Of a DNA stretch of 20,353 bases, positions 710 through 18,339 are shown piece after piece. Made by a program: the position numbers and the translations under genes. Origin of the DNA: an uncultured virus (IMG/VR IMGVR_UViG_3300006149_000734) (lineage: Duplodnaviria; Heunggongvirae; Uroviricota; Caudoviricetes); the IMG/VR virus record IMGVR_UViG_3300006149_000734; one strand, 5' to 3'. How positions within the stretch are numbered: the stretch's first letter is position 1; each line of letters starts with the position of its first letter. The notes under the pieces are model-generated. The model did no database searches and had not been told where the DNA came from. It worked only from the letters and a program-made list of their open reading frames with translations.

Positions 710-911
710 GCTGAATCCCTCCGTCCTCCGGGATGTAGGCTTCTCCTTGCTCTGCTGCGATTGCCTTGGAAAGCAGGGTAGAACAAGCCATTGCCAGCGA
801 CATCCGATGCTCCCACGCCCAATCGTTCAAGGTGTTATAAATGTCCGCCTTGAGCCGGGATGAGAAGCACTGGTATCCGGCTCCACGCTCCTGCCGCTGC
901 TGTACCGCCAT
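690..911 (-). CDS. Small DNA-binding protein, probable ribbon-helix-helix, in the Cro position
   Basis: AAGGAGGTG RBS, ATG at 911; FSSRLKADIYNTLNDWAWEHRMSLAMACSTLLSKAI fits a beta-alpha-alpha Arc/CopG pattern; first gene divergent from the repressor. Confidence 0.65.
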   Translation of the reverse strand: MAVQQRQERGAGYQCFSSRLKADIYNTLNDWAWEHRMSLAMACSTLLSKAIAAEQGEAYIPEDGGIQRGKETD

Positions 912-946
912 TAGTTTCACCTCCTTAAAAAATCACGGTTTTCCTC

Positions 947-975
947 TTTCATTTGTTGCGCATTTGTGCTATACT
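947..975 (+). promoter_or_regulatory. Putative rightward (repressor/lysogeny) promoter with extended -10
   Basis: TGcTATACT at 967-975; only a weak -35 near 947-952. Confidence 0.55.
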
Positions 976-1051
976 GCTGTTGCGGTGCGTTTACAAAGTT
1001 TTTTGTCTCCTTTGTTCATCGCTATTGCAAGTATATCACTGCATTTGCGGT
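973..1051. promoter_or_regulatory. Two quasi-palindromic operator candidates ACTGCnnTTGCGGT (973-986 and 1038-1051)
   Basis: ACTGCTGTTGCGGT and ACTGCATTTGCGGT are 12/14 identical. One overlaps the -10/+1 of the rightward promoter, the other lies in the spacer of the leftward promoter. Confidence 0.65.
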
Positions 1052-1058
1052 TTGTCAA
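1030..1058 (-). promoter_or_regulatory. Strong leftward sigma-A promoter (early lytic)
   Basis: On the minus strand TTGACA (1058-1053), 17 bp, TATACT (1035-1030), with a TG extension. Confidence 0.85.
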
Positions 1059-1138
1059 CGGAGTTTTACACTTTTTCAGAGCTTTTTTTGTATGTTCTGA
1101 AAATTTGCACCATAAAAACAAAAAGGGAGGTGGTGGTC

Positions 1139-1555
1139 GTGACCATCAATGCACGGCTTTTTACGCTCTTGGCTGACACCCATAGGACGCAGAAAGACTT
1201 GGCTGATTTCATTGGAATAAATGAGCGAAATGTCGCTTCTTGGAAGCAGCGTGGCTCTGATCCTCCTGCGAAGCTGATTCCAAAAATCTCCGAATTCTTC
1301 AGTGTGTCTATGGAATGGCTTTTAACCGGAGAGGAACGCCCCCGTGATTCCTTCGTGAATAACGGCTCTGTCGCTGGGAATCTGGGGCCGCACACGGGGA
1401 CTATCATCGTCCGAAACGGCGGGGAAACATTTCTTTCCGAGGAATGCGCCGAGTTGGTGCGGGTGTATGAATCGCTGGATGTCCGTCAGCGCATCCAGCT
1501 GTTGAAGTCTGCCTTTGAGATTGCTGACGGCTCTAAATCTGAACAATCCGAGTAG
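1139..1555 (+). CDS. CI-like XRE-family phage repressor
   Basis: GGAGGTGG RBS, GTG at 1139; HTH TQKDLADFIGINERNVASWKQRGSDPPAKLIPKISEFFSVSMEWLLTG; same orientation as the integrase; no S24 peptidase domain seen. Confidence 0.85.
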   Translation: MTINARLFTLLADTHRTQKDLADFIGINERNVASWKQRGSDPPAKLIPKISEFFSVSMEWLLTGEERPRDSFVNNGSVAGNLGPHTGTIIVRNGGETFLSEECAELVRVYESLDVRQRIQLLKSAFEIADGSKSEQSE

Positions 1556-1566
1556 GAGGTGTGCCT

Positions 1567-1833
1567 ATGTGTATTTCTGAATCTGTGTCGCGGTCTGTCC
1601 GGGTCCGCGGCTCCTGCGCCGAGTGGTTGCCGCTGGTGCGGGATTGCCTGTCCAGCCGGGGCTTTCGGAACATCGCCGTGGATGCCGGCCGCCGCTGTCT
1701 GACCGCTGATTATGGTGATCCGCCTGTGTGCAGCGGTATTTCCGTCACGCTTGCTCCGTCTGCCCTGTGCGGCGGGACGGATGTGTCTGTGGTGGTGTCT
1801 GCGTCTTTGGAAGGAGGGTGTTCTGCATGGTAG
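1567..1833 (+). CDS. Hypothetical protein (lysogeny operon)
   Basis: AGGAGGT RBS before ATG 1567; fills the gap between repressor and membrane protein and overlaps the next start. Confidence 0.6.
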   Translation: MCISESVSRSVRVRGSCAEWLPLVRDCLSSRGFRNIAVDAGRRCLTADYGDPPVCSGISVTLAPSALCGGTDVSVVVSASLEGGCSAW

Positions 1834-2735
1834 GTGTTTTCAGCTTCCTGCTGGTTGCGTCCGGCGTTGCCCTGGTGGTTGCCCTTGTCCTGCTGGTTGT
1901 AAGGGCGGTAAGGAAAAAGCCCAAAAAATCCGTTGCTCTCATGGCCGCTGCCTGTGTCGCTGTTTTTCTTGTTTCCTCTGTGGGCATTGGCATGACCTAC
2001 CATCCTACGCCGGAGCAAATCGCCGAACGGGAGCGGATCGCAGCGGAGAAGGCTGCGGCAAAGGAAGCTGAGGAAGCCGCCAGACGGGAAGCAGAAAAAG
2101 CGGCGCAGACGGAATCCCCTGCGTCCACTCCCTCTGAATCCAAGCCACCAGAGCCGTCTGCCAGCGTTCATGCGTCTGCGCCCTCCGAAGCCCCAGTGAA
2201 GCCGGAAACCTCCGCTCCTGCTGAATCCCAGAAACCTGTACAGTCCGAGCCGCCCACCGAGAACACGCCCTCTGCACCGTCCAATTCTGGGGACGGGGAC
2301 GCTGGTTCAGAGCCGGAGGGGGATTTCATTCTGGATTTCAATTCGCTAACTCCCGATGATTTCGGTACGCTGGATACTGGGAATCTTGAACTTGAATCCG
2401 GTGAACTTCTGGAAGTCAGATATGGCGGGGATGTATACGCCGGAAAAGGCGTGATTATCGTGAAAGCCAAAACATCGCCGAATTTGACAAACAAATTGAC
2501 CATCCGGCAAAATTACCACGATGTCTGCGAACTGATCACAAATCACGGTTTTGATTCGTGCCCGGAAATCCAATATTGGGCTGTTGCTGATATGACGGAC
2601 GGGGAAGAGGGAAAGGCCATCAGCTTCACTTTGGATTCGGATACAATTCTTGGCGTTGCAAATCAGACAATCCTTCCAATCAATTTGGACGATTACTTGC
2701 AAGACCTCTGGATTTTGCCGAGTTTGTTGGAATGA
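1827..2735 (+). CDS. Membrane-anchored protein: two N-terminal TM helices, Pro/Ser/Glu-rich linker, acidic C-terminal domain; possible superinfection-exclusion protein
   Basis: AAGGAGG RBS, ATG 1827; hydrophobic segments flank RKKPKK; lies between repressor and integrase. Confidence 0.7.
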   Translation: MVGVFSFLLVASGVALVVALVLLVVRAVRKKPKKSVALMAAACVAVFLVSSVGIGMTYHPTPEQIAERERIAAEKAAAKEAEEAARREAEKAAQTESPASTPSESKPPEPSASVHASAPSEAPVKPETSAPAESQKPVQSEPPTENTPSAPSNSGDGDAGSEPEGDFILDFNSLTPDDFGTLDTGNLELESGELLEVRYGGDVYAGKGVIIVKAKTSPNLTNKLTIRQNYHDVCELITNHGFDSCPEIQYWAVADMTDGEEGKAISFTLDSDTILGVANQTILPINLDDYLQDLWILPSLLE

Positions 2736-2748
2736 GGGGTGTTCTGGT

Positions 2749-4188
2749 ATGAAACGCGCGGCTCTGTATATCCGTGTCTCCACGCTGGAACAGGCGCAGG
2801 AGGGCTACTCCATCGGGGCGCAGAAGGAGCGGCTCATGGCGTACTGCAAGGCGCACGATTGGGCTGTGGCTGATTTCTACATTGACGGCGGTTATTCCGG
2901 CTCGAACCTCGACCGCCCCGGCATTCAGAAGCTGGTTGCCGAGGTGGATTCCTTCGACCTGGTTCTGGTTATGAAACTCGACCGCCTGTCCCGCTCCCAG
3001 CGGGACACCCTGCATCTCATTGAGGAAGTGTTTCTGCCGGCCGGCGTGGACTTCGTTTCGATGTCGGAATCCTTCGACACCTCCACGCCTTTCGGTCGGG
3101 CGATGATTGGTATCCTCTCCGTGTTCGCCCAGCTGGAACGGGAACAGATCAAAGAGCGCACCTTTATGGGGCGGCTGGAACGGGCGAAGGAGGGGCTTTA
3201 CCACGGGGGGATGTTCTTCCCCATCGGGTATGATTACGATTCCTCCGGGCGGCTGTCTGTGAACGAGTACGAAGCCGCACAGGTGCGCAAAATCTACGCA
3301 TGGTATCTGGAGGGGACTTCCCCGGAGAAAATTGCAGAGCGTCTGCGTGATCAGGGCTACTCGAACCGTTACGGTTCATGGAATGAAATCTCCGGGCGCG
3401 CCAGCGTCCTGCGGATTCTTTCCTCGGATGTCTATCTGGGGACGCTGCGCTTTGCTGGTGTCGTGGTCGAACACGCTCACGATGCTATCATCGACCAAGA
3501 GACCTTTGAAAAAGCCACAGCCCTGCGGATGAAGCGCAGGGAGGTGTTCGGGGATTCTCCCTATCAGTCAAAATATCTGCTTGTCGGTCTTTGCTGGTGC
3601 GCCCGGTGCGGGACGCGGTACGCCGTCAAGCATAACTATGGCGGGTATAAATATTATGTCTGCTACTCTCGTGCGAGGACGGTGAAAAGGATGATAAAAG
3701 CGGATCATTGCGATAACAAAAACTGGCCGCTGGATGAGTTGGATTCCATCGTGGAGCGTGAAGTCTCCCGGCTGCTCTTTGAACCGGGCTACTATGAATC
3801 CCTCTTGAAACGGAAAGCCGCCGAAGTCAGGGAACAGCCACGGGGGGACGGCGATGTGTTCCGGGATAAAATTGCGGGGCTGGAAAAGCAAATAAACCGC
3901 ATGATGGACTTGTATCAAGACGAAAAAATCCCGGTCGATGTGCTGTCTGCCCGTATTGACAAGCTGCATCGGGAGAAGATTGCGCTGGAGGAACAGTTGG
4001 CGGCGGTCGAGCCGCTGAAGCCGAAACGGGACTATAACGAGGATGCCTTTGCCGGGTTGCTGGCCGATTTTGCTACGGTCTGGCAGTCTGCGGGGCTGGA
4101 TGACAGGCGGCAGATCATCTCTACGCTCATCCGCAAAATTACCCTTGACGGGGAATCCGTGAACATTGAATGGGCGTTCCTGGACTAA
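2749..4188 (+). CDS. int: Large serine recombinase (phage integrase, A118/TP901-1 type)
   Basis: Catalytic YIRVST, DGGYSGSNLDRP, KLDRLSRS, GRAMIGILSVFAQLERE, recombinase domain, zinc ribbon (CARC...YYVC...C) and coiled coil; GAGGGG RBS before ATG 2749. Confidence 0.97.
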   Translation: MKRAALYIRVSTLEQAQEGYSIGAQKERLMAYCKAHDWAVADFYIDGGYSGSNLDRPGIQKLVAEVDSFDLVLVMKLDRLSRSQRDTLHLIEEVFLPAGVDFVSMSESFDTSTPFGRAMIGILSVFAQLEREQIKERTFMGRLERAKEGLYHGGMFFPIGYDYDSSGRLSVNEYEAAQVRKIYAWYLEGTSPEKIAERLRDQGYSNRYGSWNEISGRASVLRILSSDVYLGTLRFAGVVVEHAHDAIIDQETFEKATALRMKRREVFGDSPYQSKYLLVGLCWCARCGTRYAVKHNYGGYKYYVCYSRARTVKRMIKADHCDNKNWPLDELDSIVEREVSRLLFEPGYYESLLKRKAAEVREQPRGDGDVFRDKIAGLEKQINRMMDLYQDEKIPVDVLSARIDKLHREKIALEEQLAAVEPLKPKRDYNEDAFAGLLADFATVWQSAGLDDRRQIISTLIRKITLDGESVNIEWAFLD

Positions 4189-4223
4189 AACAAAGCCCCG
4201 CCGAAAAACGGCGGGGCTTTGTT
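4189..4223. terminator. Bidirectional rho-independent terminator
   Basis: Perfect 15-bp inverted repeat AACAAAGCCCCGCCG-AAAAA-CGGCGGGGCTTTGTT between convergent genes. Confidence 0.9.
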
Positions 4224-4240
4224 CTGCTTTCGGTGGAGTG

Positions 4241-4435
4241 TCAGCCTGTCTTGGTCTGCGCCCTGTTGCTTTCTGTCATCTGCGTGATTACCCGTTTCAG
4301 TGCGTGTCCGGCAATCACGCCGAATGTCTCAGCAGGGGCTTCCTCCACCGTTTGCTCTTTCTGATCCTTGCAGTCGCATCTCTCTCCTGGGTCGAGATTG
4401 CTTCCGCAATTTGGGCAAACTCTGTAATAAGGCAT
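4241..4435 (-). CDS. Small Cys-rich phage protein (YYRVCPNCGSNLDPGERCDC)
   Basis: AAGGGA RBS, ATG 4435; CxxC and CxC zinc-binding motif. Confidence 0.75.
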   Translation of the reverse strand: MPYYRVCPNCGSNLDPGERCDCKDQKEQTVEEAPAETFGVIAGHALKRVITQMTESNRAQTKTG

Positions 4436-4460
4436 TGCTCTATCCCTTCTTTCCTGCGCC

Positions 4461-4676
4461 CTACCGCTTGTAGGTCGCTCTCCGGGTCTCTTTCCCGTCC
4501 TTGACCTCCACCTCAATGGTCACGGGCATTCCTGTGTTGTCCTGCGTCACGGGGAGGAATCTTGCCCGGACGATGGTCAGCCCCTGCTTGTGCAGCCTTT
4601 CGCATTTCTCGCACAGGGCTTTGTCCTTGTACTCCGTCCCGCAAACCTCGCAGATGTAATGCTCTACTTTCCGCAT
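4461..4676 (-). CDS. Small zinc-finger hypothetical protein
   Basis: GGAGGT RBS, ATG 4676; CEVC...CEKCE..H motif. Confidence 0.75.
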   Translation of the reverse strand: MRKVEHYICEVCGTEYKDKALCEKCERLHKQGLTIVRARFLPVTQDNTGMPVTIEVEVKDGKETRRATYKR

Positions 4677-4864
4677 CCTGATACCTCCCATTCGTCTGAA
4701 ATCCTCTGTAGTGCGCTGGTGAATCTCGGTCTGTTGTCCCGCCACTTCCGCCAGTGCCAGAAGCATGGGAACATGGGCGGCTCTTGGGCAAGCCATTCCT
4801 CAAACCTGGAAATAAATTCTAACTTCTGGTTGTATCTGCGCTTGTGTTCTCTGCGTCCACTCAT
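4664..4864 (-). CDS. Small basic, Trp-rich hypothetical protein
   Basis: GGGGGAAAGG RBS, ATG 4864 (MSGRREHKRRYNQKLEF...); tiles the operon. Confidence 0.65.
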   Translation of the reverse strand: MSGRREHKRRYNQKLEFISRFEEWLAQEPPMFPCFWHWRKWRDNRPRFTSALQRISDEWEVSGCGK

Positions 4865-4875
4865 CGCCTTTCCCC

Positions 4876-5295
4876 CTATGCAATAACCTCTGCAGGCTCC
4901 GTGTACTCCCGTTCGTTTGGCGTACCCGTCCAGTGTTCCTCGCTGTACCAGAAAGCGCAGTTGACGGTTCCCGTGTGCCTGTCCGGGTATTTCTCTCTGA
5001 ATTTCTCCACGGCGGCTTTCTCGCTCTCTGCCAGTACGATGATGTAGGTGTTCTGGAATGGGAATCCGGGGTCGCTGCCGAAGGTGAAATAAAATCTGCT
5101 GTGCGGCTTCCCGGTCTGAAGTTCCATATACCGGGCGAGGATGTCGGTCTCGAACGCCCAGCTGCCGTCCGGGTGCGCCTGGCAGATGTCGAAGTACGGG
5201 CATCCGTTGTCTGCGTTGTGGTAAATGTCTACATAGCATTTCGGGTGCTTTTTGCACACGGCGTTGGTCTCCGGCACGATGTCCCTGTATGTCAT
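4876..5295 (-). CDS. Hypothetical protein
   Basis: GGAGGG RBS, ATGA overlap with upstream stop; Cys-containing N-terminal part and FYFTFGSD...VNCAFWY C-terminal part. Confidence 0.75.
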   Translation of the reverse strand: MTYRDIVPETNAVCKKHPKCYVDIYHNADNGCPYFDICQAHPDGSWAFETDILARYMELQTGKPHSRFYFTFGSDPGFPFQNTYIIVLAESEKAAVEKFREKYPDRHTGTVNCAFWYSEEHWTGTPNEREYTEPAEVIA

Positions 5296-5585
5296 TGTTT
5301 TGCCCTCCTGTCATATTCGTGAGGAAGGTTCAAAGCGTCCAGAAGGTGTCTGTCCTCTATGGTGAGTGTCCCTGTGTCAATCTTCTGCCGGATGGTTTCG
5401 ACCATCCCTTCCCAGCGGCGCATGAGTGTGTCGTGCCTGTCCTTCATGCCCTCATAATCTGCCAAGGCTTTCTTGCATTCCAGCCATGCCGCGGCGATGG
5501 GGAAGTGTTCATGGTCTACCATCTTGTTCTGCGGGGGTGGAATCACGCCGTCCAGCGTGTTCACGGCTTCCTTGAGCGTTATCAT
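5292..5585 (-). CDS. Hypothetical protein
   Basis: AAAGGA RBS; start and stop overlap neighbours on both sides. Confidence 0.7.
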   Translation of the reverse strand: MITLKEAVNTLDGVIPPPQNKMVDHEHFPIAAAWLECKKALADYEGMKDRHDTLMRRWEGMVETIRQKIDTGTLTIEDRHLLDALNLPHEYDRRAKQ

Positions 5586-5761
5586 GCTTTGTCCCGTCCT
5601 TTCCTGTTTTCCACCTTGATGGTAATATTCTCCGGGCGGATTCCGTTCTCTGCTGCCAGCAGTTCAGCGGTCGCTTGCATCTCTCCGGCAAATGTCCCCT
5701 GGAGGGTGTACCCTCCGAGAAACTTGCCGCCCGGTGCATAGAAGTTCAGCCATTGCTCCAC
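5582..5761 (-). CDS. 59-aa hypothetical protein not in the ORF track (MEQWLNFYAPGGKFLGGYTLQGTFAGEMQATAELLAAENGIRPENITIKVENRKGRDKA)
   Basis: GAGGG RBS, GTG at 5761; TGA overlaps the next ATG; fills the gap exactly. Confidence 0.65.
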   Translation of the reverse strand: MEQWLNFYAPGGKFLGGYTLQGTFAGEMQATAELLAAENGIRPENITIKVENRKGRDKA

Positions 5762-6057
5762 GCCGGTTCCCTCGCTTTCTTGCGCTGCTGGTAGGCTTCA
5801 ATTTCGCCATCGCAGTAAAGCCCACCGCATCCGTACAGCTTCAGCAGCGTGGTATCTGCGTCCTGCAGTGCCGCCTTGATGTTTTCATCGCCATTGACGA
5901 GTTGCAGGACGGCTTCCTGCGCCGTCCGTTCATCCATTATCCGGGGCAGCTTGTCGAGAATGTCGCAAGCGTCCCGCACCGCATCATGCTCCCTCTGCGT
6001 CAGTTTGCGCTCGTTCTGCATCTGGATCAATGTCTCCACGATTTCAACGATTTTCAT
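5746..6057 (-). CDS. Hypothetical protein, N-terminal paralog of 6399-6755
   Basis: GGAGAAAGGA RBS; MKIVEIVETLI...LTQREHDAVRDACDILDKLPRIMDE. Confidence 0.75.
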   Translation of the reverse strand: MKIVEIVETLIQMQNERKLTQREHDAVRDACDILDKLPRIMDERTAQEAVLQLVNGDENIKAALQDADTTLLKLYGCGGLYCDGEIEAYQQRKKAREPAWSNG

Positions 6058-6168
6058 GTGCGTTGTCCTTTCTCCCCGTTTTTCCGTTAGGTCAGCTATT
6101 CGCTTTCGGATGTTGTCTAAATTGTGCAGCCCTCTCTGCTCCCAGCGTCCAAGGCCATATTCCCTTGT

Positions 6169-6402
6169 TTATCCTGCGACTTCCTTCTCAATCTTGAAGA
6201 TGTGGTTTTCGGCGGTAAGCTGCTGCCCGTCCTTAAACTTCGCCAGAATCGCCATGTACTCGGACAGGGTTTCTTCCTGGTTCGGGAAGTTGATGGTGTT
6301 CGCCTTGATGATGGCGTGGACATACTCGTATGCTTGCGCGATGTTTTTGGCTATCGCCGTGAAGCCCATCCCGCCGACCTTGTAGGTGATTTTGAGCGTC
6401 AT
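6169..6402 (-). CDS. Hypothetical protein
   Basis: ATG 6402 in ATGA overlap with upstream stop (MTLKITYKVGG...). Confidence 0.7.
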   Translation of the reverse strand: MTLKITYKVGGMGFTAIAKNIAQAYEYVHAIIKANTINFPNQEETLSEYMAILAKFKDGQQLTAENHIFKIEKEVAG

Positions 6403-6755
6403 GCGTATTCCACCTGCCCTTTCAAAAGTTCCAGCACCCATTCGAGGATTTTCGCCGCTTGGTCGTACCTTGCAAAGATGACATCATCCTTGAAGATGCC
6501 GCTCCCGTACTCCCCGGCTTGCGTCCGCTGGAATTTGATTTCATGCTCGACCTTGGCGATGAGTTCCTGCCGGGTTATCAGCGCATCCTGCGCCGCTCCC
6601 TTGCGCACGGCTTCCTTTGCCGCATCCTCATCCATCATGTTGGGGAGCCGGTCGAGGATGTTGCAAGCGGCGCACACCGCCGCATCCTCCGTCCGGGTCA
6701 GGCTGTTCCCGTCCCGCACTCTAATAAGGGCTTCCACCAATTCTCCGATTCTCAT
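6399..6755 (-). CDS. Hypothetical protein, N-terminal paralog of 5746-6057
   Basis: GGAGAAAGGA RBS; MRIGELVEALI...LTRTEDAAVCAACNILDRLPNMMDE. Confidence 0.75.
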   Translation of the reverse strand: MRIGELVEALIRVRDGNSLTRTEDAAVCAACNILDRLPNMMDEDAAKEAVRKGAAQDALITRQELIAKVEHEIKFQRTQAGEYGSGIFKDDVIFARYDQAAKILEWVLELLKGQVEYA

Positions 6756-6813
6756 TGTGCCGTCCTTTCTCCCCGTCCCGCCGATGGGTCAGCGTTCGCT
6801 TTCGGTTGGTGTT

Positions 6814-7206
6814 CTATTTCCCCCGGTTTGCCATCATGCTCTGCACATAGGCTGCGACTGCTTCCTTTGTCCCGCAATCCGGGCAGATGGCTGTTTTGTT
6901 GTCCTTGCGGGACAGGGCGGGAGTGCCTGTGTAAATCCCGCCGCACTCTGGACACCGCCGCTTTTGCGCGGCTTCCTTGCCGAAGTAGGTTTCTTCGATG
7001 ATGTCCTGCAGGGCTTCCCGCACCATCGTGTCTGCGCTCTCGTACCGCTCCAGCGCATCCTCGTTACGGCTGGCGTTGATGATGCGGAGCATCGTTACCT
7101 TGTCATCCCGGCTGTAGTTGCTTGCGTGAATCGCCTGTGAAACATCGTAGCAAGCGTAGCCCCTTGCGATGCGGAGGTTCTTTTCCTGCGTCTCTTGCGT
7201 TCTCAT
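6814..7206 (-). CDS. Hypothetical protein with C-terminal zinc ribbon
   Basis: AAAGGAG RBS, ATG 7206; CPECGG...PALSRKDN..ICPDCG. Confidence 0.75.
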   Translation of the reverse strand: MRTQETQEKNLRIARGYACYDVSQAIHASNYSRDDKVTMLRIINASRNEDALERYESADTMVREALQDIIEETYFGKEAAQKRRCPECGGIYTGTPALSRKDNKTAICPDCGTKEAVAAYVQSMMANRGK

Positions 7207-7260
7207 GCTTTGCTCTCCTTTCGGTTGCCCTCGTAACCTCCGGGGCGGGTCGTTGTTCAA

Positions 7261-7746
7261 TTACCACTTTTTGAGGATGAACGCTATCTTCATGCCGCAC
7301 CGGACTGTCTCCGTCCGAGTGCCGTGACTATCAATTAACCGCAGGGTACTGATGATTTTCTCGAAGTGATTTTCATCATCCTCGTACCGTTTGCCGCTGC
7401 TCAGGAAGAAGCGGTAATCCTTGCGGAAATCAGCATAGCTGGTGTAGGTTCTCGTCTCTCCGCTTTTTGTGGCTGTTACCTCGACCGTGATGTCAGCCCC
7501 CTGTGTCTCGCCGACCTGTTCAACAATCCAGATGTTGATGGTGCGGTTTCCGTCTTTGAGGTTGATCTCCAGTCGATTGCTGAGGTCGCAGATGTAGTTG
7601 TAATATTCGACCGTGCTGCGGTAGACGGGGTATCCTGCCCGTTCGCTGCTCATGGTGTCCTTTTGGAAGTCTCCGGGAAAGATGGTGTTTGCCATCGTCC
7701 ACGCCGCCAGTGCGCTTGAAACCTCGATCCTGCTTCCCGTGGTCAT
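7261..7746 (-). CDS. Hypothetical protein
   Basis: AAGGAGGTG RBS, ATG 7746 directly after the upstream stop. Confidence 0.75.
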   Translation of the reverse strand: MTTGSRIEVSSALAAWTMANTIFPGDFQKDTMSSERAGYPVYRSTVEYYNYICDLSNRLEINLKDGNRTINIWIVEQVGETQGADITVEVTATKSGETRTYTSYADFRKDYRFFLSSGKRYEDDENHFEKIISTLRLIDSHGTRTETVRCGMKIAFILKKW

Positions 7747-7747
7747 C

Positions 7748-7972
7748 TCAGGCCACCTCCTTTGCGCTCTCCACCCACATTGTGGTGTTCGCGTGTCCGA
7801 GGTAGAGGATGTACTCTCGTTCGTCCTCATCTTGGGTGTCAACCACCGCGGCGTACTCGTAGTTGATGGCGGTTACCTCGTAGTCCAGTTCTTCCAGTTC
7901 CTCGACCATCTCGTTCTGCCGCGTCCAGAATTTGCCCTCCACGTTCATCATGACCTTTTCGATTGCTGTCAT
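7748..7972 (-). CDS. Small highly acidic protein, first gene of the leftward accessory operon
   Basis: GAGGA RBS; 74 aa with 18 D/E versus 5 K/R by manual count. Confidence 0.8.
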   Translation of the reverse strand: MTAIEKVMMNVEGKFWTRQNEMVEELEELDYEVTAINYEYAAVVDTQDEDEREYILYLGHANTTMWVESAKEVA

Positions 7973-7991
7973 TTCTGCTTCCTCGCTTTCG

Positions 7992-8045
7992 GTTTTTTAG
8001 ACAACTTGTAATGTCGGTTAAGGTGGCTACACTGGCCTGTGGATA
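7992..8045. mobile_element. Putative hybrid attachment site (attP-derived arm + core + attB-derived arm inside phage pol)
   Basis: Non-coding GTTTTTTAGACAACTTGTAATGTCGGTT abuts the polymerase codons AAG GTG GCT...; TTTAG (7996-8000) is 19 bp from an AA dinucleotide (8020-8021) at the point where polymerase similarity begins. Confidence 0.6.
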
Positions 8046-8643
8046 TCAGGGGAGCGTTGGCGCACTGGTTCAGATGGGCGCCCTGGAATCGGGCATCCCC
8101 GAGGATGAACTGCCAGGAATCGTGAAGATGTGGCGCAAGGCCAATACGAATATCGTCCGCTTCTGGTATGACGTGGAGGATGCAGCGATCAGCGCGGTCC
8201 AAGGCAATCCAACCGCGCTTGACCATGGTATCCGGTTTGAGTGCGAGGCGGACTATCTATTTATCACGCTCCCTTCCGGGCGGCGATTGGCCTACTACCA
8301 ACCAGAGCTTCAGCCGGAACCGAAGTTTGACAAGATGGGCCTTACCTACAAGGGCATGGGCCAGAACAAACAGTATATCCGGCAAAAAACCTATGGCGGG
8401 AAGCTGGTGGAGAATATCACCCAAGCCACCGCCCGGGACTGTCTGCGGGATGCTATGACCGCTCTGGATGCCGCCGGATACCGCATTGTTTTCCATGTCC
8501 ATGATGAAGTCATAGCGGATATGCCTACGGGTACCGGCTCTCTGGCGGAAATGCAGGAGATTATGGGACGCCCGTTGTCTTGGGCTCCAAGTCTGCCCCT
8601 TCGGGCGGCCGGCTTCGAGGCGGATTTCTACATGAAGGATTAA
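8020..8643 (+). pseudogene. C-terminal fragment of a phage family A DNA polymerase, truncated inside motif B
   Basis: Begins at KVATLACGYQG (K...Y of motif B, upstream R missing), contains TYGGKLVENITQATARD and motif C VFHVHDEV, ends with FYMKD. No motif A, exonuclease domain or RBS upstream. Confidence 0.92.
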
Positions 8644-8655
8644 GGGGGGCATGGA

Positions 8656-8964
8656 ATGAGAAAAGCGATTGCAATCGATTTTGATGGTTGTCTATGCGAG
8701 GACGCGTACCCTCAGATTGGTGACCCGCATTGGGATGTCATTTCTTTAGCGATTCAAGAGCAACGGTCGGGAGCGGGGTTAATCCTATGGACCTGTCGGG
8801 AAGGTCGGCTTCTCCAAGAGGCGGTAGCTGCCTGCGCCCGGTGGGGGTTGAATTTTGACGCTGTAAATGAAAGTTTACCAGAATGGATTGCCGCTTTTGG
8901 AACGCGGCCCCGGAAGGTTGGAGCTACCGAGTATTGGGATGATCGAGCGATACGCGTTCAGTAG
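8656..8964 (+). CDS. Minimal (capless) HAD-superfamily hydrolase
   Basis: Motif I IAIDFDGC, motif II LWTCR, K and YWDDRA motif IV. Confidence 0.85.
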   Translation: MRKAIAIDFDGCLCEDAYPQIGDPHWDVISLAIQEQRSGAGLILWTCREGRLLQEAVAACARWGLNFDAVNESLPEWIAAFGTRPRKVGATEYWDDRAIRVQ

Positions 8965-8973
8965 GAGGAAACT

Positions 8974-11385
8974 ATGCCAAATTTGAAATATGATGGGGAG
9001 ATTCATATTGCCGTCTACCCCTCCAGGCAGACGAAAGTCGGCCAGAACAAAAAGCTCCAGTGGTCCGCGTTCCTTGACCAGCTTCTCAGCACGACCCGGA
9101 CGAAGGAAACCATACGGGACTACTTCAAGATGGGGCGCAAGGAACAGGACACCATCAAGGACGTTGGCGGATTCGTCGGGGGCTGGCTGAAAGGCGGCCG
9201 CCGCAAGACGGGTTGTGTGGAACACCGCACGCTGCTCACCCTGGACGCTGATCTTGCCCAGGCGGATTTGCTGGATATGTTCGATCTGTCCTACGGCTGT
9301 GCGGCGGCGGTCTACTCTACCCACAAGCACACCCCGGAAAAGCCCCGGCTTCGGTTTATCGCTCCCCTCAACCACCCCGTGACCGCCGAGGAATACGAGG
9401 CCATTGGCCGGCGCGTGGCCTATGATCTAGGCATAGACCAATTCGACGACACCAGCTACCAGCCCACGCGCCTGATGTTCTACGCCAGTACCGCGGCGGA
9501 CGGGGAATTTTTCAAAGACTTCCGGGATGGCCCCTGGCTGGACCCGGATGCGGTACTGGGGCAATACCACGATTGGCGCGACACGTCCTATTGGCCCACG
9601 TCCTCCAGGATGGCGGATGTCCGAAAGCGGGAGGCCAAGAAGCAAGGGGACCCCTTGGAGAAGCCCGGCATCGTGGGGGCGTTCTGCCGGTGCTATGACA
9701 TCGATGCAGCGCTTGAGAAATTCCTGCCGGGTGTTTACACTCCTTGCGCAATAGCTGACCGCTACACCTACGCCAAGGGCTCCACATCGGCGGGGCTGGT
9801 CCTCTACGACAACGGCCTGTTCGCCTACTCCAACCACGCCACTGATCCCGCCTCCGGAAAGCTGTGCAACGCCTTTGATCTGGTCCGTATCCATCTATAC
9901 GGGGAACAGGACGAGGACACTTCCCCCGACACGCCTATGAGCCGCCGGCCGTCGTTCCTGTCTATGCAGGACTTGGCGGCGGGGGATACGGAGGTAAAAC
10001 GCCTGCTGAATCGGGAGCGCCTGGATCGGGCCAAGGCCGACTTTGAAAGCCCAATTACAGACATGGACGATGAAAGCTGGGCTGAAGAACTGGAAGTGGA
10101 CCGCAAAGGCAAGGTGCTTTCTACTATTGACAACGTGTATATCATCCTGCTCCACGACCCGCTATTGAAAGGTGCGGTGTGCTACAACGATCTAAAAGTG
10201 CGTCCTGTGGCCCTGCGGTCCCTGCCTTGGAGGAAGGTGGCCGACACGGTGAACGGAAGTACCTGGACCGACGCTGATGACAGCGCCCTCCGGCGGTATC
10301 TGGAGAAAATCTATAAGCTGACAGGAAAGGAGAAAATTATGGATGGCATGATAAATGCGGCCAAGGACCATTCTATTCACCCTATCAAAGACTATCTGGA
10401 AAGCCTCTCATGGGATGGTGTGCCCCGCCTGGACACCCTCTTAGTAGATTACCTTGGTGCGGAGGATACACCGTACATACGGGCGGTCACGCGCAAAACA
10501 TTCACGGCAGCGGTAGCCCGTATCTTTAACCCCGGCTGCAAATTCGATTTTGTGTTGGTACTGGCGGGCCCCCAGGGGCGCGGCAAGAGTACGCTGGTGG
10601 CGAAGATGTCCAAGGGCTGGTACACGGATAGCCTATCGGGGATCGGGACCAAGGAGGCCTTTGAGGGCATTCAGGGGTATTGGCTGGTGGAGCTGGGAGA
10701 GCTGGCTGCTATGCGCAAGCTGGAAATCGAGACCATTAAGAACTTTATCAGTAAGCAGGTGGACAGCTACCGGGCCGCTTATGGACGCCGGGTAGAGGAT
10801 CACCCCCGCCAGTGCATCTTCATAGGCACCACCAATTCTACCAGCTTTCTCCGGGACGATACCGGTAACCGCCGGTTCTGGCCGGTAAGGCTGGGAGATC
10901 GGCCTCCAGCGAAAACCGTATGGTACGACCTGACGGCACCGGTCATTGACCAGCTATGGGCCGAGGCGGCAGCGCTGTATAACAGCGGCGAAACCCTGTT
11001 CCTGCCCCCTGAGCTGGATGCGCAGGCGCAGGAACAGCAGGCGAGATTTACCGAGGATGACCCCCGGCGCGGGCTGGTGGAGGATTTTCTGGCTGTCCAG
11101 CTCCCGGCAGATTGGAAAACCCGAAGCAAGGGCGAACGGCAGAGCTGGTTCATGGAGAGCGCGTCCATCAGGACGGTTGGAGAACACCTCCGGGAGTACA
11201 TCAGCGCTGTGGAGGTTTGGTCCGAGTGTTTTGGGAACAATCCGAGCCGCTTTCCCCGGCAGGACCGGGGGGAAGTCAACACCATTCTGCGGCAGCTTCC
11301 AGGCTGGGAAGAGGAAACCGGGCGGCAGCGGTGCGGGCCGTATGGGCTTCAAATCCGTTTCCGGCGCGTATCCGCAGAGCTGTAA
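8974..11385 (+). CDS. Phage primase/helicase with virulence-associated E (VirE/VapE) ATPase domain
   Basis: N-terminal primase-like motifs (GGFVGG, LTLDAD, YSTHKH..PRLR), Walker A GPQGRGKST, Walker B-like VELGEL, GTTN...DDTGNRRFWP; AGGAGG RBS. Confidence 0.93.
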   Translation: MPNLKYDGEIHIAVYPSRQTKVGQNKKLQWSAFLDQLLSTTRTKETIRDYFKMGRKEQDTIKDVGGFVGGWLKGGRRKTGCVEHRTLLTLDADLAQADLLDMFDLSYGCAAAVYSTHKHTPEKPRLRFIAPLNHPVTAEEYEAIGRRVAYDLGIDQFDDTSYQPTRLMFYASTAADGEFFKDFRDGPWLDPDAVLGQYHDWRDTSYWPTSSRMADVRKREAKKQGDPLEKPGIVGAFCRCYDIDAALEKFLPGVYTPCAIADRYTYAKGSTSAGLVLYDNGLFAYSNHATDPASGKLCNAFDLVRIHLYGEQDEDTSPDTPMSRRPSFLSMQDLAAGDTEVKRLLNRERLDRAKADFESPITDMDDESWAEELEVDRKGKVLSTIDNVYIILLHDPLLKGAVCYNDLKVRPVALRSLPWRKVADTVNGSTWTDADDSALRRYLEKIYKLTGKEKIMDGMINAAKDHSIHPIKDYLESLSWDGVPRLDTLLVDYLGAEDTPYIRAVTRKTFTAAVARIFNPGCKFDFVLVLAGPQGRGKSTLVAKMSKGWYTDSLSGIGTKEAFEGIQGYWLVELGELAAMRKLEIETIKNFISKQVDSYRAAYGRRVEDHPRQCIFIGTTNSTSFLRDDTGNRRFWPVRLGDRPPAKTVWYDLTAPVIDQLWAEAAALYNSGETLFLPPELDAQAQEQQARFTEDDPRRGLVEDFLAVQLPADWKTRSKGERQSWFMESASIRTVGEHLREYISAVEVWSECFGNNPSRFPRQDRGEVNTILRQLPGWEEETGRQRCGPYGLQIRFRRVSAEL

Positions 11386-11600
11386 GGACTGATACGAGGG
11401 TTACAAGCAGTGTATCAAAAATCTCTGTCGTATCCGTAGTCCGGATACGGCTCAACGCCAGTGATTTCAAGGCATAAGGCCCTCTGTATCCCAAGTATCA
11501 GTTTCTATTATGAAATATATAAATTAAAGAGAAATTACACGCTTAGCGCGCTTAATGCGCGTATGTGTATACGCGCGCGTGCGCGAGAAACAGAGACACA
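11368..11600. other. Probable phage replication origin region
   Basis: Seven GTATC/GATAC copies (11368, 11391, 11412, 11430, 11444, 11486, 11495), palindrome CGTATCCG-N5-CGGATACG (11429-11449), AT-rich tract near 11500-11540, and a purine-pyrimidine alternation at 11555-11585. Confidence 0.6.
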
Positions 11601-11637
11601 CCGAAAACTCCAACGGGTTATAAATTGGGAGGCACCT

Positions 11638-11925
11638 ATGGAAAAAGCAGTAGAGACGTACCTGCGGGAGCAGGTGCGCAAGGCCGGCGGACTGGCATTG
11701 AAACTGGTTTGCCCCGGCTGGACTGGTGTGCCGGACCGCCTCATTCTTTTACCGGGCGGACGGATATTCTTCGCGGAAACCAAAGACCTAGGGAAAACAC
11801 CGAAGCGGCGGCAGAAATATGTGCATAGCCGGCTCCGAGAGCTGGGCTTCACCGTGTTTGTCCCGGACAGTAAAGAAGCCGTAGACCAGATGATGGTTTA
11901 CATAACAAGTGAGGTGGGGAATTGA
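11638..11925 (+). CDS. VRR-NUC domain nuclease (Holliday junction resolvase-like)
   Basis: GGAGG RBS, ATG 11638; GVPDRLILLPGGRIFFAETK, a PD-(D/E)xK motif. Confidence 0.92.
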   Translation: MEKAVETYLREQVRKAGGLALKLVCPGWTGVPDRLILLPGGRIFFAETKDLGKTPKRRQKYVHSRLRELGFTVFVPDSKEAVDQMMVYITSEVGN

Positions 11926-12140
11926 TGGAGAATGAAGGTAAAATGGCATATAAGAATTGCTGGGACCATCCGTTTTCTGATCGAGTGTGGCACGAGTGTG
12001 GAGCTTGCAGGGGTATAGTATCAAAAAAGGCAAAGGTCTGTCGGCATCATGGTGCAACCTTTATCGGGGCATATTTTGGATATTCCAGACCCCGGAAAGA
12101 AGAGCTTGCTGAACGGAAGGTGAGGGATTGTGAAATATAG
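11925..12140 (+). CDS. Small Cys/His-containing hypothetical protein
   Basis: GAGGTG RBS; overlaps VRR-NUC stop and helicase start. Confidence 0.55.
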   Translation: MENEGKMAYKNCWDHPFSDRVWHECGACRGIVSKKAKVCRHHGATFIGAYFGYSRPRKEELAERKVRDCEI

Positions 12141-13494
12141 ACCACACCCCTATCAGACATTTTGTATTGACTATGCCTTGGGTCACTCCGCCGCCGGCCT
12201 ATTCCTAAAGCCTGGCATGGGGAAAACGTCTATCGCATTGACGGCGGCGGACCGGCTTCTATATGATAGCTTCGAGGTATCTAAGGTCCTGGTGATTGCC
12301 CCTTTGCGGGTAGCGGAGGATACCTGGAGCCGGGAGAGCGAGAAGTGGGACCACCTGAAGCACCTGCGTGTGAGCCGGGTGTTGGGAAGTGCACGGGAGC
12401 GTCGGGCGGCACTGGCGAGAAAAGCGGACGTATATTGCATTAACCGTGAGAACGTCCCATGGCTGGTGAAAGCGTATGGACTTGGCTGGCCTTTCGACAT
12501 AGTGATTGTCGATGAGCTGTCCAGCTTCCGCAATCCCAGTGCCCAGCGATTTAAGGCGCTGCGGAAGGTTCGGCCATTGATAAAGCACCTGTGGGGCTTG
12601 ACGGGGACTCCCCGTCCCCGGAGCCTGCTGGACCTGTGGGCACAGGTATACTTACTGGACCAAGGGATACGGCTGGGCAAGACCTTCACCGAGTATAAAA
12701 ACCGGTTCTTCATCCCGGGGCGCCGGAATGGGTATGTCATTTACGACTGGATCCCCAGACCGGGAGCGGCAGACGAGATTTACAGCCTGATTTCCGATAT
12801 TTGTATTAGTTTGGAAATCAAGGGTAATGTGAAGATGCCGGAACTGATGGAAACGGTGCGGACTGTAGTGTTGTCTCCGGCGGCCCGGACACAGTATGAC
12901 AGCATGGAGCGTGACGCAATCCTGGCCCTGGAAGGGACCGTCATTGACGCGGGGAGCGCGGCGGCAGTCAATGGGAAGCTGATGCAGATTGCCGGAGGCG
13001 CGGTTTACGATGAGGATCGTCGTGTCCATGAGCTGAACACTGAGAAGCTGGACACCTTGGAGGATATTATCGCGGAGGCTGCCGGGGAGCCGGTGCTGGT
13101 TGCCTATCGGTATCAACACGAGCGGGACAGGATTCTGGCGCGTTTCCCTCAAGCGGTGCAGCTAAAGGACAGCAGTACCATAGCTGCCTGGAACCGGGGC
13201 GAGATTCCCCTTCTGCTGGCGCATCCCGCTGGAGCTGGGCATGGGCTGAATCTTCAGGACGGCGGGCATATCATCGTATGGTTTGGCCCGACCTATGACT
13301 TGGAGCTGGACGAGCAATTCACAGACCGGCTATACCGGCAGGGGCAAAGGTCTACTACCAGCGTAATTTATCTGGTAGCCGAGGGGACCGTGGAACAGGA
13401 TGCGATGGCCGCCCTGCGGGAAAAAGCTGACGGGCAAAATGCTATGATGTCCGCGATTAGGGCCAGAATTAAGAAATACACCGGGGGGAGGTAA
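12130..13494 (+). CDS. SNF2-family (superfamily 2) phage helicase
   Basis: PGMGKT, VIVDELS, GLTGTP, AGHGLNLQ, RLYRQGQ motifs. Confidence 0.95.
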   Translation: MKYRPHPYQTFCIDYALGHSAAGLFLKPGMGKTSIALTAADRLLYDSFEVSKVLVIAPLRVAEDTWSRESEKWDHLKHLRVSRVLGSARERRAALARKADVYCINRENVPWLVKAYGLGWPFDIVIVDELSSFRNPSAQRFKALRKVRPLIKHLWGLTGTPRPRSLLDLWAQVYLLDQGIRLGKTFTEYKNRFFIPGRRNGYVIYDWIPRPGAADEIYSLISDICISLEIKGNVKMPELMETVRTVVLSPAARTQYDSMERDAILALEGTVIDAGSAAAVNGKLMQIAGGAVYDEDRRVHELNTEKLDTLEDIIAEAAGEPVLVAYRYQHERDRILARFPQAVQLKDSSTIAAWNRGEIPLLLAHPAGAGHGLNLQDGGHIIVWFGPTYDLELDEQFTDRLYRQGQRSTTSVIYLVAEGTVEQDAMAALREKADGQNAMMSAIRARIKKYTGGR

Positions 13495-13500
13495 CTGACT

Positions 13501-13701
13501 ATGACAAGAAATAAATATCCTGGGTGCTGCTGCCGCTGCGGGCAGTGGGTCGAAATTGGCTATGGGTATTTCGAGAAAGTCCACAGTCCGGCACATGGAA
13601 AACCGAAGTGGCGTATCAAGTGCGTTAGGTGCGCCAGCGGCAGAGAGCTGACCGATAAGGGCCGGGGCATGATCCGGGCGAAAAAGGCAGCGCAGAAGTA
13701 A
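13501..13701 (+). CDS. Small zinc-finger hypothetical protein
   Basis: GGAGGT RBS; CCRC and CVRC pairs. Confidence 0.7.
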   Translation: MTRNKYPGCCCRCGQWVEIGYGYFEKVHSPAHGKPKWRIKCVRCASGRELTDKGRGMIRAKKAAQK

Positions 13702-13727
13702 AAAATCAAGAAAAGCGGGGTGGGGCA

Positions 13728-14162
13728 ATGACTTTGGCAGAGCTATCCAAGTATTTCAAACTGCGGAGCAGGCAGAACCGGAATCGGATAATGCTTAGGG
13801 CTTTGCAGGATAGGGCTCACACCGGGGTACCTGGGGCGCAGGTTATTACCGGGATGCCCCATGCGCCGGGAGTGCGGGATGCGGTTGGGGACCTGATCGT
13901 GGAGATTGAGGACGTGAAAGGAGAAATCCAACGTCTGGAGATCGAAATGGGCCGGGTGAAGCGGGAAATTTCCGGCTATATTGAAACCATTCCCGATATT
14001 CAAACACGGTTGATTTTCCGTCTGCGCTTCCTGCGGTGTATGACATGGGATGAAGTCGCAGACACGATTGGCGGGCGGAATACGGTCAATGGGGTAAAGA
14101 AAACCTGCTATCGGTATTTAGATGCGGAGAAGGCCAAACGGAAAGCGGAGGCCGGAAATTGA
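13728..14162 (+). CDS. ArpU/RinA/DUF1492-like phage late transcriptional activator
   Basis: Coiled coil followed by sigma region-4-like HTH (IFRLRFLRCMTWDEVADTIG); last gene of the replication block. Confidence 0.8.
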   Translation: MTLAELSKYFKLRSRQNRNRIMLRALQDRAHTGVPGAQVITGMPHAPGVRDAVGDLIVEIEDVKGEIQRLEIEMGRVKREISGYIETIPDIQTRLIFRLRFLRCMTWDEVADTIGGRNTVNGVKKTCYRYLDAEKAKRKAEAGN

Positions 14163-14166
14163 AAGT

Positions 14167-14227
14167 TGTCCCGCGATGTCCCGCCATGGCACTTGACGGC
14201 CCGCAACCATATGTGGTATGGTAAGAT
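14167..14227 (+). promoter_or_regulatory. Late promoter with tandem activator boxes
   Basis: TGTCCCGC direct repeats at 14167 and 14177 (10-bp period), then TTGACG (14193-14198), 18 bp, TGgTATGGT (-10 at 14217-14222). Confidence 0.65.
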
Positions 14228-14249
14228 TGTAAAATCCTAAATCAGCCGG

Positions 14250-14287
14250 GCGGCCTTCTTGGAAAAGAGAAGGCCGCTATTCTTTTT
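14250..14287 (+). terminator. Terminator-like hairpin in the late leader
   Basis: GCGGCCTTCT/AGAAGGCCGC 10-bp stem followed by TATTCTTTTT. Confidence 0.6.
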
Positions 14288-14402
14288 GGGAAGGAGGGCA
14301 CCTGCCGCCGCGTTTCTCCTTTGCGCGGTGGTGAAGTCCGGATCGGGTGCTGGTCGCCAACAGCGCCTGGGAAGGGCAGATTACAGAAGGAGGAATTTTT
14401 CA

Positions 14403-15779
14403 ATGTATGGTTTTATTGTGCTTGCAGTGTATACCGCCTTGATGCTGGTGGTTACAGTCTGTCTCTCGAGAAAGGCAAAAACAGCTGGAAGCTTCCACGT
14501 TGCTGATCGGAGGATTGGAATGGTGCAAAGCGCTATGAGTATTGCGGCCACCTGGATATGGGCGCCGGCGCTTTTCACGTCGGCAGAAAAAGCCTATCTC
14601 AACGGCTGGTCGGGGCTGTTTTGGTTTCTGGTTCCCAACGTGATATGTTTGTTGATCTTTGTACCCTTCGGGAAGAAAATGCGAAAGCAAGCCCCGGAGG
14701 GTATTACTCTGTCCGGTTATATGCGGGGACGGTATCATTCCAAGTCGGTACATGGCGTATATCTCTTTGAGCTGGCAGCGCTGTCTGTCCTTTCAACGGC
14801 GGTGCAGCTGCTGGCCGGAGCAAAGATTCTGGCGTCGGTGACGGGCTGGCCGTTCTGGTTGCTGACGATGGTGCTGGCGGCAATCGCCTTTTCCTATTCG
14901 CAGTATTCGGGGATTCGGGCGTCAGTGCTGACTGATATGATCCAGATGTTGTTCATGCTGGCCTGCTGTGTGCTGCTGGTTCCCTGGGCGCTTTCTGCGG
15001 ATACCGGCGTGGTGGATATGCTTCATGGACTTTCTGGCGCATCGGGGCAGTACGCCAGCCTTTTTAATGCGAACGGCCGGGAAGTATTTCTGTCGTTCGG
15101 TCTACCGACAGCTATAGGCCTGATTGCCGCACCCTTCGGGGATCAATGCTTCTGGCAGAGGGCCTTTTCAATTCGAGAGGATAAGATGGACGGTGCGTTC
15201 CGGCTGGGGGCGCTGCTGTTCGCGGTGGTACCACTGTCTATGGGTATCCTTGGATTGGTCGCCGCCGGTTCGGGCTATGTGGCACACGAGAGTGGTATGG
15301 TTAACTTTGAGCTGGTGGCTAGCCTGTTCCCGGCTTGGGTCATGCTGCCTTTCCTGTTCATGGTAATCTCCGGGCTGTTGTCTACTGCGGACAGCAACCT
15401 GTGTGCGGCCGCGTCCCTGACCAGTGACTTCGGCGGGAGTATGCGAACGGCAAAGGCGGCTATGTTGATGCAGCTGGCTTTGGCTATCGCGATCGCCAAT
15501 GTCCCGGGTTTGACCGTGACGGACCTGTTTTTGATTTACGGCACCCTTCGGGCCACGACAATGCTTCCCACGGTTTTGACGCTGAACGGAAACGCCCTGT
15601 CCCCGGGGGGGATTACGGTGGGCGTTGCAGCGTCGCTGGCGGTCGGGATGACGGTTTTCATTCTGGGGACCGTCTGCGGCAACGCGGTATTGAAAACCGC
15701 GGGCAGCTTGCTGGCGGTTTCGCTTTCCGGCTGTATCAGTCTGGCAGCCGCCCCCAGAAGTGAGGGGGTGCGAGCATGA
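14403..15779 (+). CDS. Sodium:solute symporter (SSS/SLC5-like) membrane transporter
   Basis: AAGGAGG RBS, ATG 14403; about 13 hydrophobic segments; SIAATWIWA, YSGIRASVLTDMIQ, DQCFWQRAFS, SGLLSTADS motifs. Confidence 0.9.
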   Translation: MYGFIVLAVYTALMLVVTVCLSRKAKTAGSFHVADRRIGMVQSAMSIAATWIWAPALFTSAEKAYLNGWSGLFWFLVPNVICLLIFVPFGKKMRKQAPEGITLSGYMRGRYHSKSVHGVYLFELAALSVLSTAVQLLAGAKILASVTGWPFWLLTMVLAAIAFSYSQYSGIRASVLTDMIQMLFMLACCVLLVPWALSADTGVVDMLHGLSGASGQYASLFNANGREVFLSFGLPTAIGLIAAPFGDQCFWQRAFSIREDKMDGAFRLGALLFAVVPLSMGILGLVAAGSGYVAHESGMVNFELVASLFPAWVMLPFLFMVISGLLSTADSNLCAAASLTSDFGGSMRTAKAAMLMQLALAIAIANVPGLTVTDLFLIYGTLRATTMLPTVLTLNGNALSPGGITVGVAASLAVGMTVFILGTVCGNAVLKTAGSLLAVSLSGCISLAAAPRSEGVRA

Positions 15780-18300: not shown

Positions 18301-18339
18301 GCATTTTGGATTTTGGTCTGGGAAGGAGGGAGCCCCGCT

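Follow-up and report, generated by a model that had tools for sequence, protein, structure and literature searches.

The DNA analysed here, a stretch of 20,353 nucleotides from an uncultured virus (IMG/VR record IMGVR_UViG_3300006149_000734) that we refer to as a whole as the window, raises the question of why a phage DNA polymerase gene begins in the middle of a conserved motif, with DNA of an oppositely oriented operon in place of its 5′ part. Below, phage A denotes the phage represented to the right of the break at position 8020 and phage B the one represented to its left. Read in frame, positions 7963–8643 encode ...RQLVMSV/KVATLACGYQG...FYMKD followed by a stop, the slash marking the break. 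PHROG families annotated as DNA polymerase covered this frame only from residue 18–20 on (phrog_10285, E 3.1e-69; phrog_17, E 2.9e-42) and, according to tblastn, matches of phage polymerases of Paenibacillus, Clostridium and SPO2 likewise started at residue 20. A virus record, G002, was 100% identical to the window from 8020 to 20000, the last base searched, and the match ended exactly at 8020. In G002, the frame extends upstream (...ADLRSKG/KVATL...) and the intact polymerase comprises 966 aa. The Pfam profile DNA_pol_A matched the intact protein above its cut-off (E 1.9e-15), with a best stretch, residues 684–775, that covers the 759/760 break; on the window fragment alone, the profile yielded E 0.017 over profile positions 300–357 only. 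The gene is broken at the AAG codon of K760, whose context, read directly from the sequence, is R-x3-K-x3-L-x3-Y-G, which we take to be the motif B pattern of family A. By these matches, the split gene is a family A DNA polymerase.

What the window retains of this gene is its 3′ part (8020–8643, plus strand): 207 codons (8020–8640) and a stop, encoding motifs B and C only, the latter as HVHDE, and lacking motif A. To the left of the break, the non-coding leader of a minus-strand gene, 7748–7972, occupies 7973–8019, and the sequence runs TTTAG (7996–8000), 19 nt ending in CGGTT, and AA (8020–8021). A first-pass annotation had described the locus in these terms: polymerase coding that starts abruptly at AAG 8020, motif A and the N-terminus replaced by non-coding DNA of an opposite operon, a TTTAG-N19-AA arrangement with a CGGTT end at the left, and intact genes downstream. 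This description held throughout, the abrupt start by the PHROG and tblastn matches and the exact divergence of G002 at 8020, the replacement by the leader of gene 7748–7972, the arrangement at the left by the sequence itself, and the downstream genes by their identity to G002.

Other truncated polymerases occur in the databases. Many proteins of 220–231 aa annotated as DNA polymerase (the P0014–P0110 set), some of them on contigs of 16–77 kb, begin at MFxVP; among those retrieved, this start was found in 12 of 19, 15–21 residues upstream of the motif B lysine. We considered these proteins as instances of the same break and rejected them, as their break point differs from K760. One short polymerase, P0023 (207 aa), starts directly after the motif B lysine, and the polymerase families in PHROGs also include short ones of 186 and 321 positions. 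Splits near motif B seem frequent among polymerases of this family. The G002 polymerase further carries, outside the window, a 305-aa insert (L008:4528-5442, minus strand) between ...YYGAGRTGRW and SGRQVQVQNLPQ. The insert is intein-like: its first residue is Cys, it ends in ...ITGN before a Ser, and it lies inside a conserved motif. It had no match in Pfam or NCBIfam, and a phmmer search of the C-terminal 252 aa of the polymerase against the PDB returned no match.

To the right of the polymerase remnant lies the replication and packaging module of phage A (8656–20353, plus strand), 100% identical to G002 up to 20000. According to Pfam and PHROG matches, it contains, besides a 102-aa gene, a VapE-type primase/helicase (8974–11385), an SNF2 helicase (12130–13494), ParB/PAPS-reductase genes and a gpA-type large terminase (from 18878), all on the plus strand. 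The identity of this part to G002 argues for a recent integration, as judged from sequence. The module also contains, between a sigma-like regulator and the ParB genes, a sodium:solute symporter-like gene of 506 aa (14259–15779, plus strand; Pfam SSF, E 1.7e-20; TIGR00813, E 1.8e-33, below cut-off; phrog_20720, E 3.3e-166); among phage cargo, a membrane transporter is unusual. In one sequencing run, X1, a contig of depth 176 omits 988 bases of the VapE-type gene (window 9878–10867), an observation that is weak because the shorter side of the joint spans only 20 letters. Phage A has a serine integrase of its own, of which a stretch (G002:C1:43962-44021, in L004) is 77% identical to window 2755–2814. 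Both phages of the nested pair are therefore temperate and have serine integrases.

The left side of the window belongs to phage B. Its features include an Xre-type HTH regulator (40–495, minus strand), which is probably the phage repressor judging by its G001 counterpart (L010:10595-11050; Pfam HTH_3, E 3.4e-8), a large serine integrase (2749–4188, plus strand) and an operon that in the ORF list comprises about 10 small genes of unknown function (4461–7972, minus strand). The operon, whose first gene is 7748–7972, reads away from the junction, its sole family matches are to zinc-ribbon proteins, and it is kept in G001 and in four viral contigs. Genome G001 matched window 1–7206 at 98.7% identity and provides the complete phage B element. 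The right end of this element consists of a homologous arm, TTTTTAGACTACTTGAAATGGCGGTC, after which come AA and unrelated DNA; at the left end, 60.6 kb away, the sequence reads ...GGGATG-AA-AATCATCTAATCTTGTTGTCTAAAAA. Taken together, the two G001 flanks correspond to a gene that G006 carries uninterrupted and that encodes 256 aa with an SMI1_KNR4 match just under cut-off (E 4.5e-5). An inverted repeat at G001 109710, with 7 mismatches, had been a candidate for the left end and was dropped, the junction at ~67675 having matched the intact G006 gene. The stretch between the ends contains genes for tail sheath, tape measure, baseplate, major head, portal and both terminase subunits, together with a DnaC-like loader, a replication initiator, an SbcCD-like nuclease, a methylase and a reverse transcriptase. 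This gene content between both ends therefore marks phage B as a complete temperate phage of ~60.6 kb with contractile-tail genes. G001 lacks the phage A polymerase: the whole G002 polymerase as a query gave only a weak, 26%-identical match on another contig.

Several further observations concern the phage B copies. The reverse transcriptase (L014:1833-2960 in G001; phrog_1423, E 4e-145) adjoins the tail/baseplate genes, which suggests a diversity-generating retroelement. Near the arm, window and G001 diverge: window 7207–7751 is unmatched, 7752–7989 is 88% identical, and 4 of the 26 arm positions are different. Despite this divergence over the last ~800 bp before the arm, the two integrases differ by a single residue, T289A, in the zinc ribbon. 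Window 6762–6810 has a further match, at 86%, close to the opposite (left) end of the G001 prophage; contigs of three of four runs break or diverge at 6763 and 6793–6795; and window 5909–6116 cross-matches 6607–6812 at 70–73%. Segments 6762–6812 and 5909–6116 look like a repeated, mosaic boundary within the small-gene operon. Window 6500–9500 had no match in the GenBank phage collection.

The junction itself has three parts, all read on the plus strand. The attP-derived arm (P half-site; 7994–8019) is a 26-nt sequence, TTTTTAGACAAC-N14, of which exact copies adjoin different flanks elsewhere. The crossover dinucleotide AA (8020–8021), shared at the joint by attP and targets, supplies bases 1 and 2 of the lysine codon in motif B. 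The target (B′) half-site in the polymerase (8022–8041), GGTGGCTACACTGG..., carries T3, Y9, C11, T12 and G13 of a degenerate consensus described below. At the other prophage end, in both L039 and G001, a mirror arm, GTTGTCTAAAAA, stands at the same 14-nt spacing from AA. Assembled from both arms, attP is ~54 bp long and reads TTTTTAGACAAC-N14-AA-N14-GTTGTCTAAAAA. In the combination of window and L039, the outer 12 nt of its arms form a perfect inverted repeat at a distance of 14 nt from AA on either side, and the same layout is found in G001.

The exact 26-nt arm was found in seven further records (four from viral_contigs, one from genome_contigs and two from metagenome_contigs), two of which are one contig, and a variant with four substitutions, of the G001 type, in two more. 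Within the family, it was present at up to 2 mismatches in 3 of 401 genomes (G001, G006 and, as a distant variant, G231). Scans with other parts of the site were less productive: the G001-type mirror arm had no match in viral_contigs, the L039-type mirror arm matched only L039's own contig, a 19-nt leader string matched eight loci without a new junction, and the unintegrated form of attP was found in none of the arm-bearing records.

Two of these junctions allowed an interrupted target to be rejoined. At the left prophage end contained in L039, an open frame of 506 residues ends in ...HPVLRWMMD and is followed by AA and AATAATCTATTCTTGTTGTCTAAAAA; the frame matches TerL_ATPase and TerL_nuclease, the latter at profile positions 5–244 of 286. 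The right junction of L031 starts with AA-C, continues in the same frame through TerL_nuclease profile positions 248–282 and leads into a portal gene. The two pieces abut in frame; the split of a terminase gene at AA therefore involved neither loss nor gain of sequence. The second case is the SMI1-like gene of G001. At these two targets, by comparison of the sequences, the exchange is conservative and without target duplication. The polymerase, terL and SMI1-like targets share with attP only AA at the joint, which fits the 2-bp staggered cut predicted for a serine recombinase. The recurrence of the arm, the mirror arm and the clean rejoining at two other targets bear out the first-pass claim that 8020 is a hybrid serine-integrase attachment junction with core AA.

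The 479-aa protein encoded at 2749–4188 has the domains of such an enzyme: Resolvase (E 3.7e-41), Recombinase (E 1.6e-14) and Zn_ribbon_recom (E 8.7e-12) according to Pfam, with membership of the integrase family phrog_95 (E 6e-133). Judged by this domain architecture, it is a large serine recombinase, that is, a phage serine integrase. The nearest solved structures are the TP901-1 catalytic domain (E 1.9e-36) and the A118 C-terminal domain (4kis; E 2.7e-18), and Pfam gave no DUF4368 match at E ≤ 0.01. The G001 copy is identical at 478 of 479 positions, and the integrases linked to the arm are 100%, 99.8%, 96%, 96% and 96% identical to that of the window (100/96/96/96% for the four viral contigs).

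The layout of the arms can be set against that of the LI and A118 sites. According to Rutherford 2013 (PMC3783163), the LI zinc-ribbon-domain motif is 5′-TTTAGTATC, at attP positions 16–24, and lies 5 bp further in on attB; the TTTAG motif named in the first-pass annotation is thus a real one, being this LI motif. For A118, a match of the central 2 bp is required, and these bases by themselves determine orientation (PMC3556126). The targets studied here have a conserved YTG at +11 to +13, 5 bp closer to the core than the TTG that both attP arms carry at +16 to +18. This 5-bp offset would fit the LI model of how the zinc-ribbon motif is placed on attB versus attP.

The same arm adjoins at least 10 different flanks, and no flank other than that of the window lies in a polymerase. 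Besides the phage A polymerase in the window, the flank in L029 (one contig with L036) comprises the 3′-terminal 27 codons of an N6_N4 methylase (E 0.0028) and, after them, a small terminase; in L030 it is, by a weak assignment, the start of an Xis/MerR-like HTH gene read from the opposite strand. L031 has the end of terL, with the portal gene next, and L032 an unknown ORF at 1.6 kb from another that, read by eye, is glycyl-tRNA synthetase-like. The flank is the SMI1-like gene in L033, with the sequence of the G001 junction, a transposase-type HTH_28 gene in L034 (E 3.8e-9) and, in L035, a piece with an ENV motif, C5 methylase-like by eye and without Pfam match. Run contigs supplied two more, from X2 and X6, and a third from X1, which departs from the window sequence at 8024. 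Compared with G002, no other flank came from phage A. Since integrases 96–100% identical to that of the window occur in more than three unrelated targets, the enzyme is, on sequence grounds, a multi-targeting large serine recombinase. The first-pass proposal that polymerase motif B is the attB, in the sense of a dedicated target, gave way to this result: 96–100% identical integrases and the same arm occur in at least 10 flanks, and none of the 10 others is a polymerase. Recurrence of related integrases at the same polymerase codon, which that annotation had suggested looking for, was accordingly seen in 0 of 10 other flanks, and in two other viral_contigs records (L037 and L038), located by the 20-nt polymerase sequence left of the break, the gene is intact.

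The targets nevertheless have bases in common. Across the 10 non-window flanks, C was preferred at +11 (9/10), T at +9 (8/10), G at +13 (8/10), T at +3 (7/10) and T at +12 (7/10); the preference for C at +11 had a binomial P of 1.3e-4, or 0.011 after 88 tests. The consensus is drawn from only 10–11 half-sites, two of which are 26-nt loose ends. The polymerase site carries T3, C9, C11, T12 and G13. With a weight matrix built from 11 half-sites without that of the polymerase (nine right halves and two left halves), the polymerase site ranked 9th of the 5117 AA dinucleotides of G002 on both halves and 32nd of 5117 on the right half alone. By these alignments, the targets are non-random and share only a short degenerate motif, which the polymerase site fits.

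The list of flanks also bears on whether phage B has evolved to enter conserved genes of rival phages and mobile elements, holding a resident prophage hostage until excision. Three of the eight annotatable flanks are clearly genes of other phages (the polymerase, terL with portal in L031, and the methylase 3′ end with small terminase in L029), and three more are mobile-element-like (HTH_28 in L034, the weak Xis/MerR-like HTH in L030 and the C5-methylase-like piece assigned by eye in L035). However, three of the phage or mobile-element flanks come from viral_contigs, a virus-selected collection; as the flanks are few and some stem from such a virus-enriched source, the excess of 6/8 may be bias. 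Two flanks, the SMI1-like gene in G001 and L032, are host-like. No target recurs, and the polymerase was used in one of 11 junctions and is otherwise intact, in both of the other viral records and in the four runs described below. The motif in common is short and degenerate; in G002 alone, eight AA sites outscore the polymerase site. Dedicated or preferred anti-phage targeting is, on this balance, improbable. The related proposal that phage B wields a relaxed-specificity integrase as a weapon, preferring conserved genes of co-resident phages and mobile elements, among them polymerase, terminase, methylases and HTH genes of excisionase and transposase type, and so achieving a reversible knock-out, we regard as rather doubtful.

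The joint of phage B to the polymerase was found in no other record or run contig and therefore rests on this one assembly, which brings up a misjoining, by the assembler, of coexisting phages A and B at 8020. At least half of the words of 7700–8340 were present in 20 of 24 listed runs (13 studies). In the four runs examined (X1, X2, X6 and X15), A and B co-occur: right-side contigs at 8020 all continue into ...GATCTGCGCTCAAAGGGC, the intact polymerase, the phage B ends continue into other DNA, and no contig bridges 8020. The best-matching runs contain 0.88–0.95 of the sampled words, not all. Contigs can lose rare variants, so the lack of a bridge among run contigs does not disprove the joint. 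Moreover, the sequence shared at the joint is only AA, or 8 nt (AAGGTGGC) with an L029-type flank, far too short for a k-mer join. The polymerase is broken exactly on the crossover dinucleotide of every other junction, and at a site within the top 0.2% of motif matches. An exact crossover base, an AA-only overlap and a high-ranking motif match together make a chimera unlikely, and we give this explanation very little weight. Least credible, to the point of being nearly dismissible, is a mosaic phage in which illegitimate or homologous recombination fused a lysogeny module to the replication module of phage A: phage genomes are mosaic and the relatives of the two sides differ, but the joint matches to the base the end of the complete 60.6-kb G001 prophage and the att junctions in nine other records, and the product would bear a dead polymerase gene.

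It is thus quite likely that 8020 is a hybrid site (arm P, AA, B′) that arose when the ~60-kb temperate phage B integrated into the polymerase gene of phage A, the phage of record G002, by means of its multi-targeting integrase. The first-pass suggestion of a temperate phage integrated in the polymerase of another phage is upheld by the complete prophage B in G001 on the left and the intact-polymerase phage A in G002 on the right. In the proposed mechanism, phage B would circularise, and dimers of the integrase would bind attP and the polymerase site. The enzyme would cut attP and target at the central AA, rotate the half-sites and reseal them, with no base gained or lost. The products would be the arm-AA-polymerase 3′ joint of the window and, beyond the window, a joint of the polymerase 5′ part, AA and the mirror arm, of the AATAATCTATTCTT-GTTGTCTAAAAA type. 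Target choice would depend on AA and a weak motif (T at +3, a pyrimidine at +9 and C-T-G at +11 to +13), which the stretch of motif B coding for K-V-A-T-L-A would happen to match.

The consequence for phage A would be a polymerase split into a 759-aa piece, encoded beyond the window, and a 207-aa piece without motif A. With exonuclease, motif A and fingers no longer on one chain, phage A could therefore not replicate by its own enzyme while phage B is in place. Excision by the integrase and a directionality factor would restore the polymerase exactly, as the terL and SMI1-like cases imply. The expectation, voiced in the first-pass annotation, that excision restores the polymerase should hold, given that two other targets rejoin cleanly at AA; excision of phage B as such is assumed. 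From sequence, we infer that this integrase catalyzed the event, that phage A would lose replication and that the loss would be reversible.

Serine-recombinase elements that split genes, which are restored by precise excision, include phage regulatory switches such as the comK prophages, SPbeta in spsM and skin in sigK; comK is the integration site of A118. As in those cases, a large-serine-recombinase element here splits a gene that precise excision would restore. The present case differs in that the split gene belongs to another phage rather than to the host, and in that neither a recurrent site nor regulated excision is in evidence.

Multi-targeting large serine recombinases are defined operationally, in Durrant 2022 (PMC10083194), as one 90%-identity cluster found in more than three unrelated target gene clusters; their clade includes TndX-like transposases and Cp36, and DUF4368 occurs in 63% of it. 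The phage B integrase resembles these enzymes in having more than three unrelated targets, a fixed core dinucleotide, a degenerate motif and conservative recombination. It differs in lacking a DUF4368 match (E ≤ 0.01), a domain common in the clade and not defining for it, in having a catalytic domain nearest that of TP901-1 and a C-terminal part nearest that of A118, and in being carried by a complete 60-kb tailed prophage. With the site-specific A118/LI and TP901-1 phage integrases (PMC3783163; PMC3556126), it shares the series of Resolvase, recombinase and zinc-ribbon domains, an attP of ~50 bp that is pseudo-palindromic, an outer motif starting with TTTAG and a 2-bp asymmetric core that alone sets orientation. 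A118 uses essentially one site, and its core is GG (PMC3556126), whereas the phage B integrase uses core AA and many targets. By count, and relative to the LI site, the TTTAG of phage B stands one base further from the core.

Nested prophages have been described in E. coli, where, according to Nakamura 2021 (PMC8112680), a prophage likewise enters via an integrase at an attB of a resident prophage. There, the attBs lie in effector-gene loci and seem to come from host chromosomes; in the cases reported here, the insertion lies within coding sequence, either that of an essential replication gene or that of a terminase, and the enzyme is a serine integrase of relaxed specificity. In a non-exhaustive literature search, the E. 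coli work (PMC8112680) was the only study of nested prophages returned. Such a search also returned no report of a phage polymerase or terminase as target of another phage's serine integrase.

The locus represents a natural case in which a temperate phage insertionally inactivates another at an essential gene, at base-pair resolution and with the uninterrupted target known. It indicates that target choice can be relaxed in a TP901-1/A118-like integrase borne by a full-size gut prophage, which matters for the reading of nested or 'broken' gut prophages, for the prediction of prophage boundaries and for the search for genome-engineering integrases. Should the excess of phage and mobile-element targets survive an unbiased survey, this would suggest that integration is a form of phage–phage interference. 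If the integrase were indeed used as a weapon, a resident prophage would revive only after phage B leaves, its replication or packaging being reversibly blocked until then.
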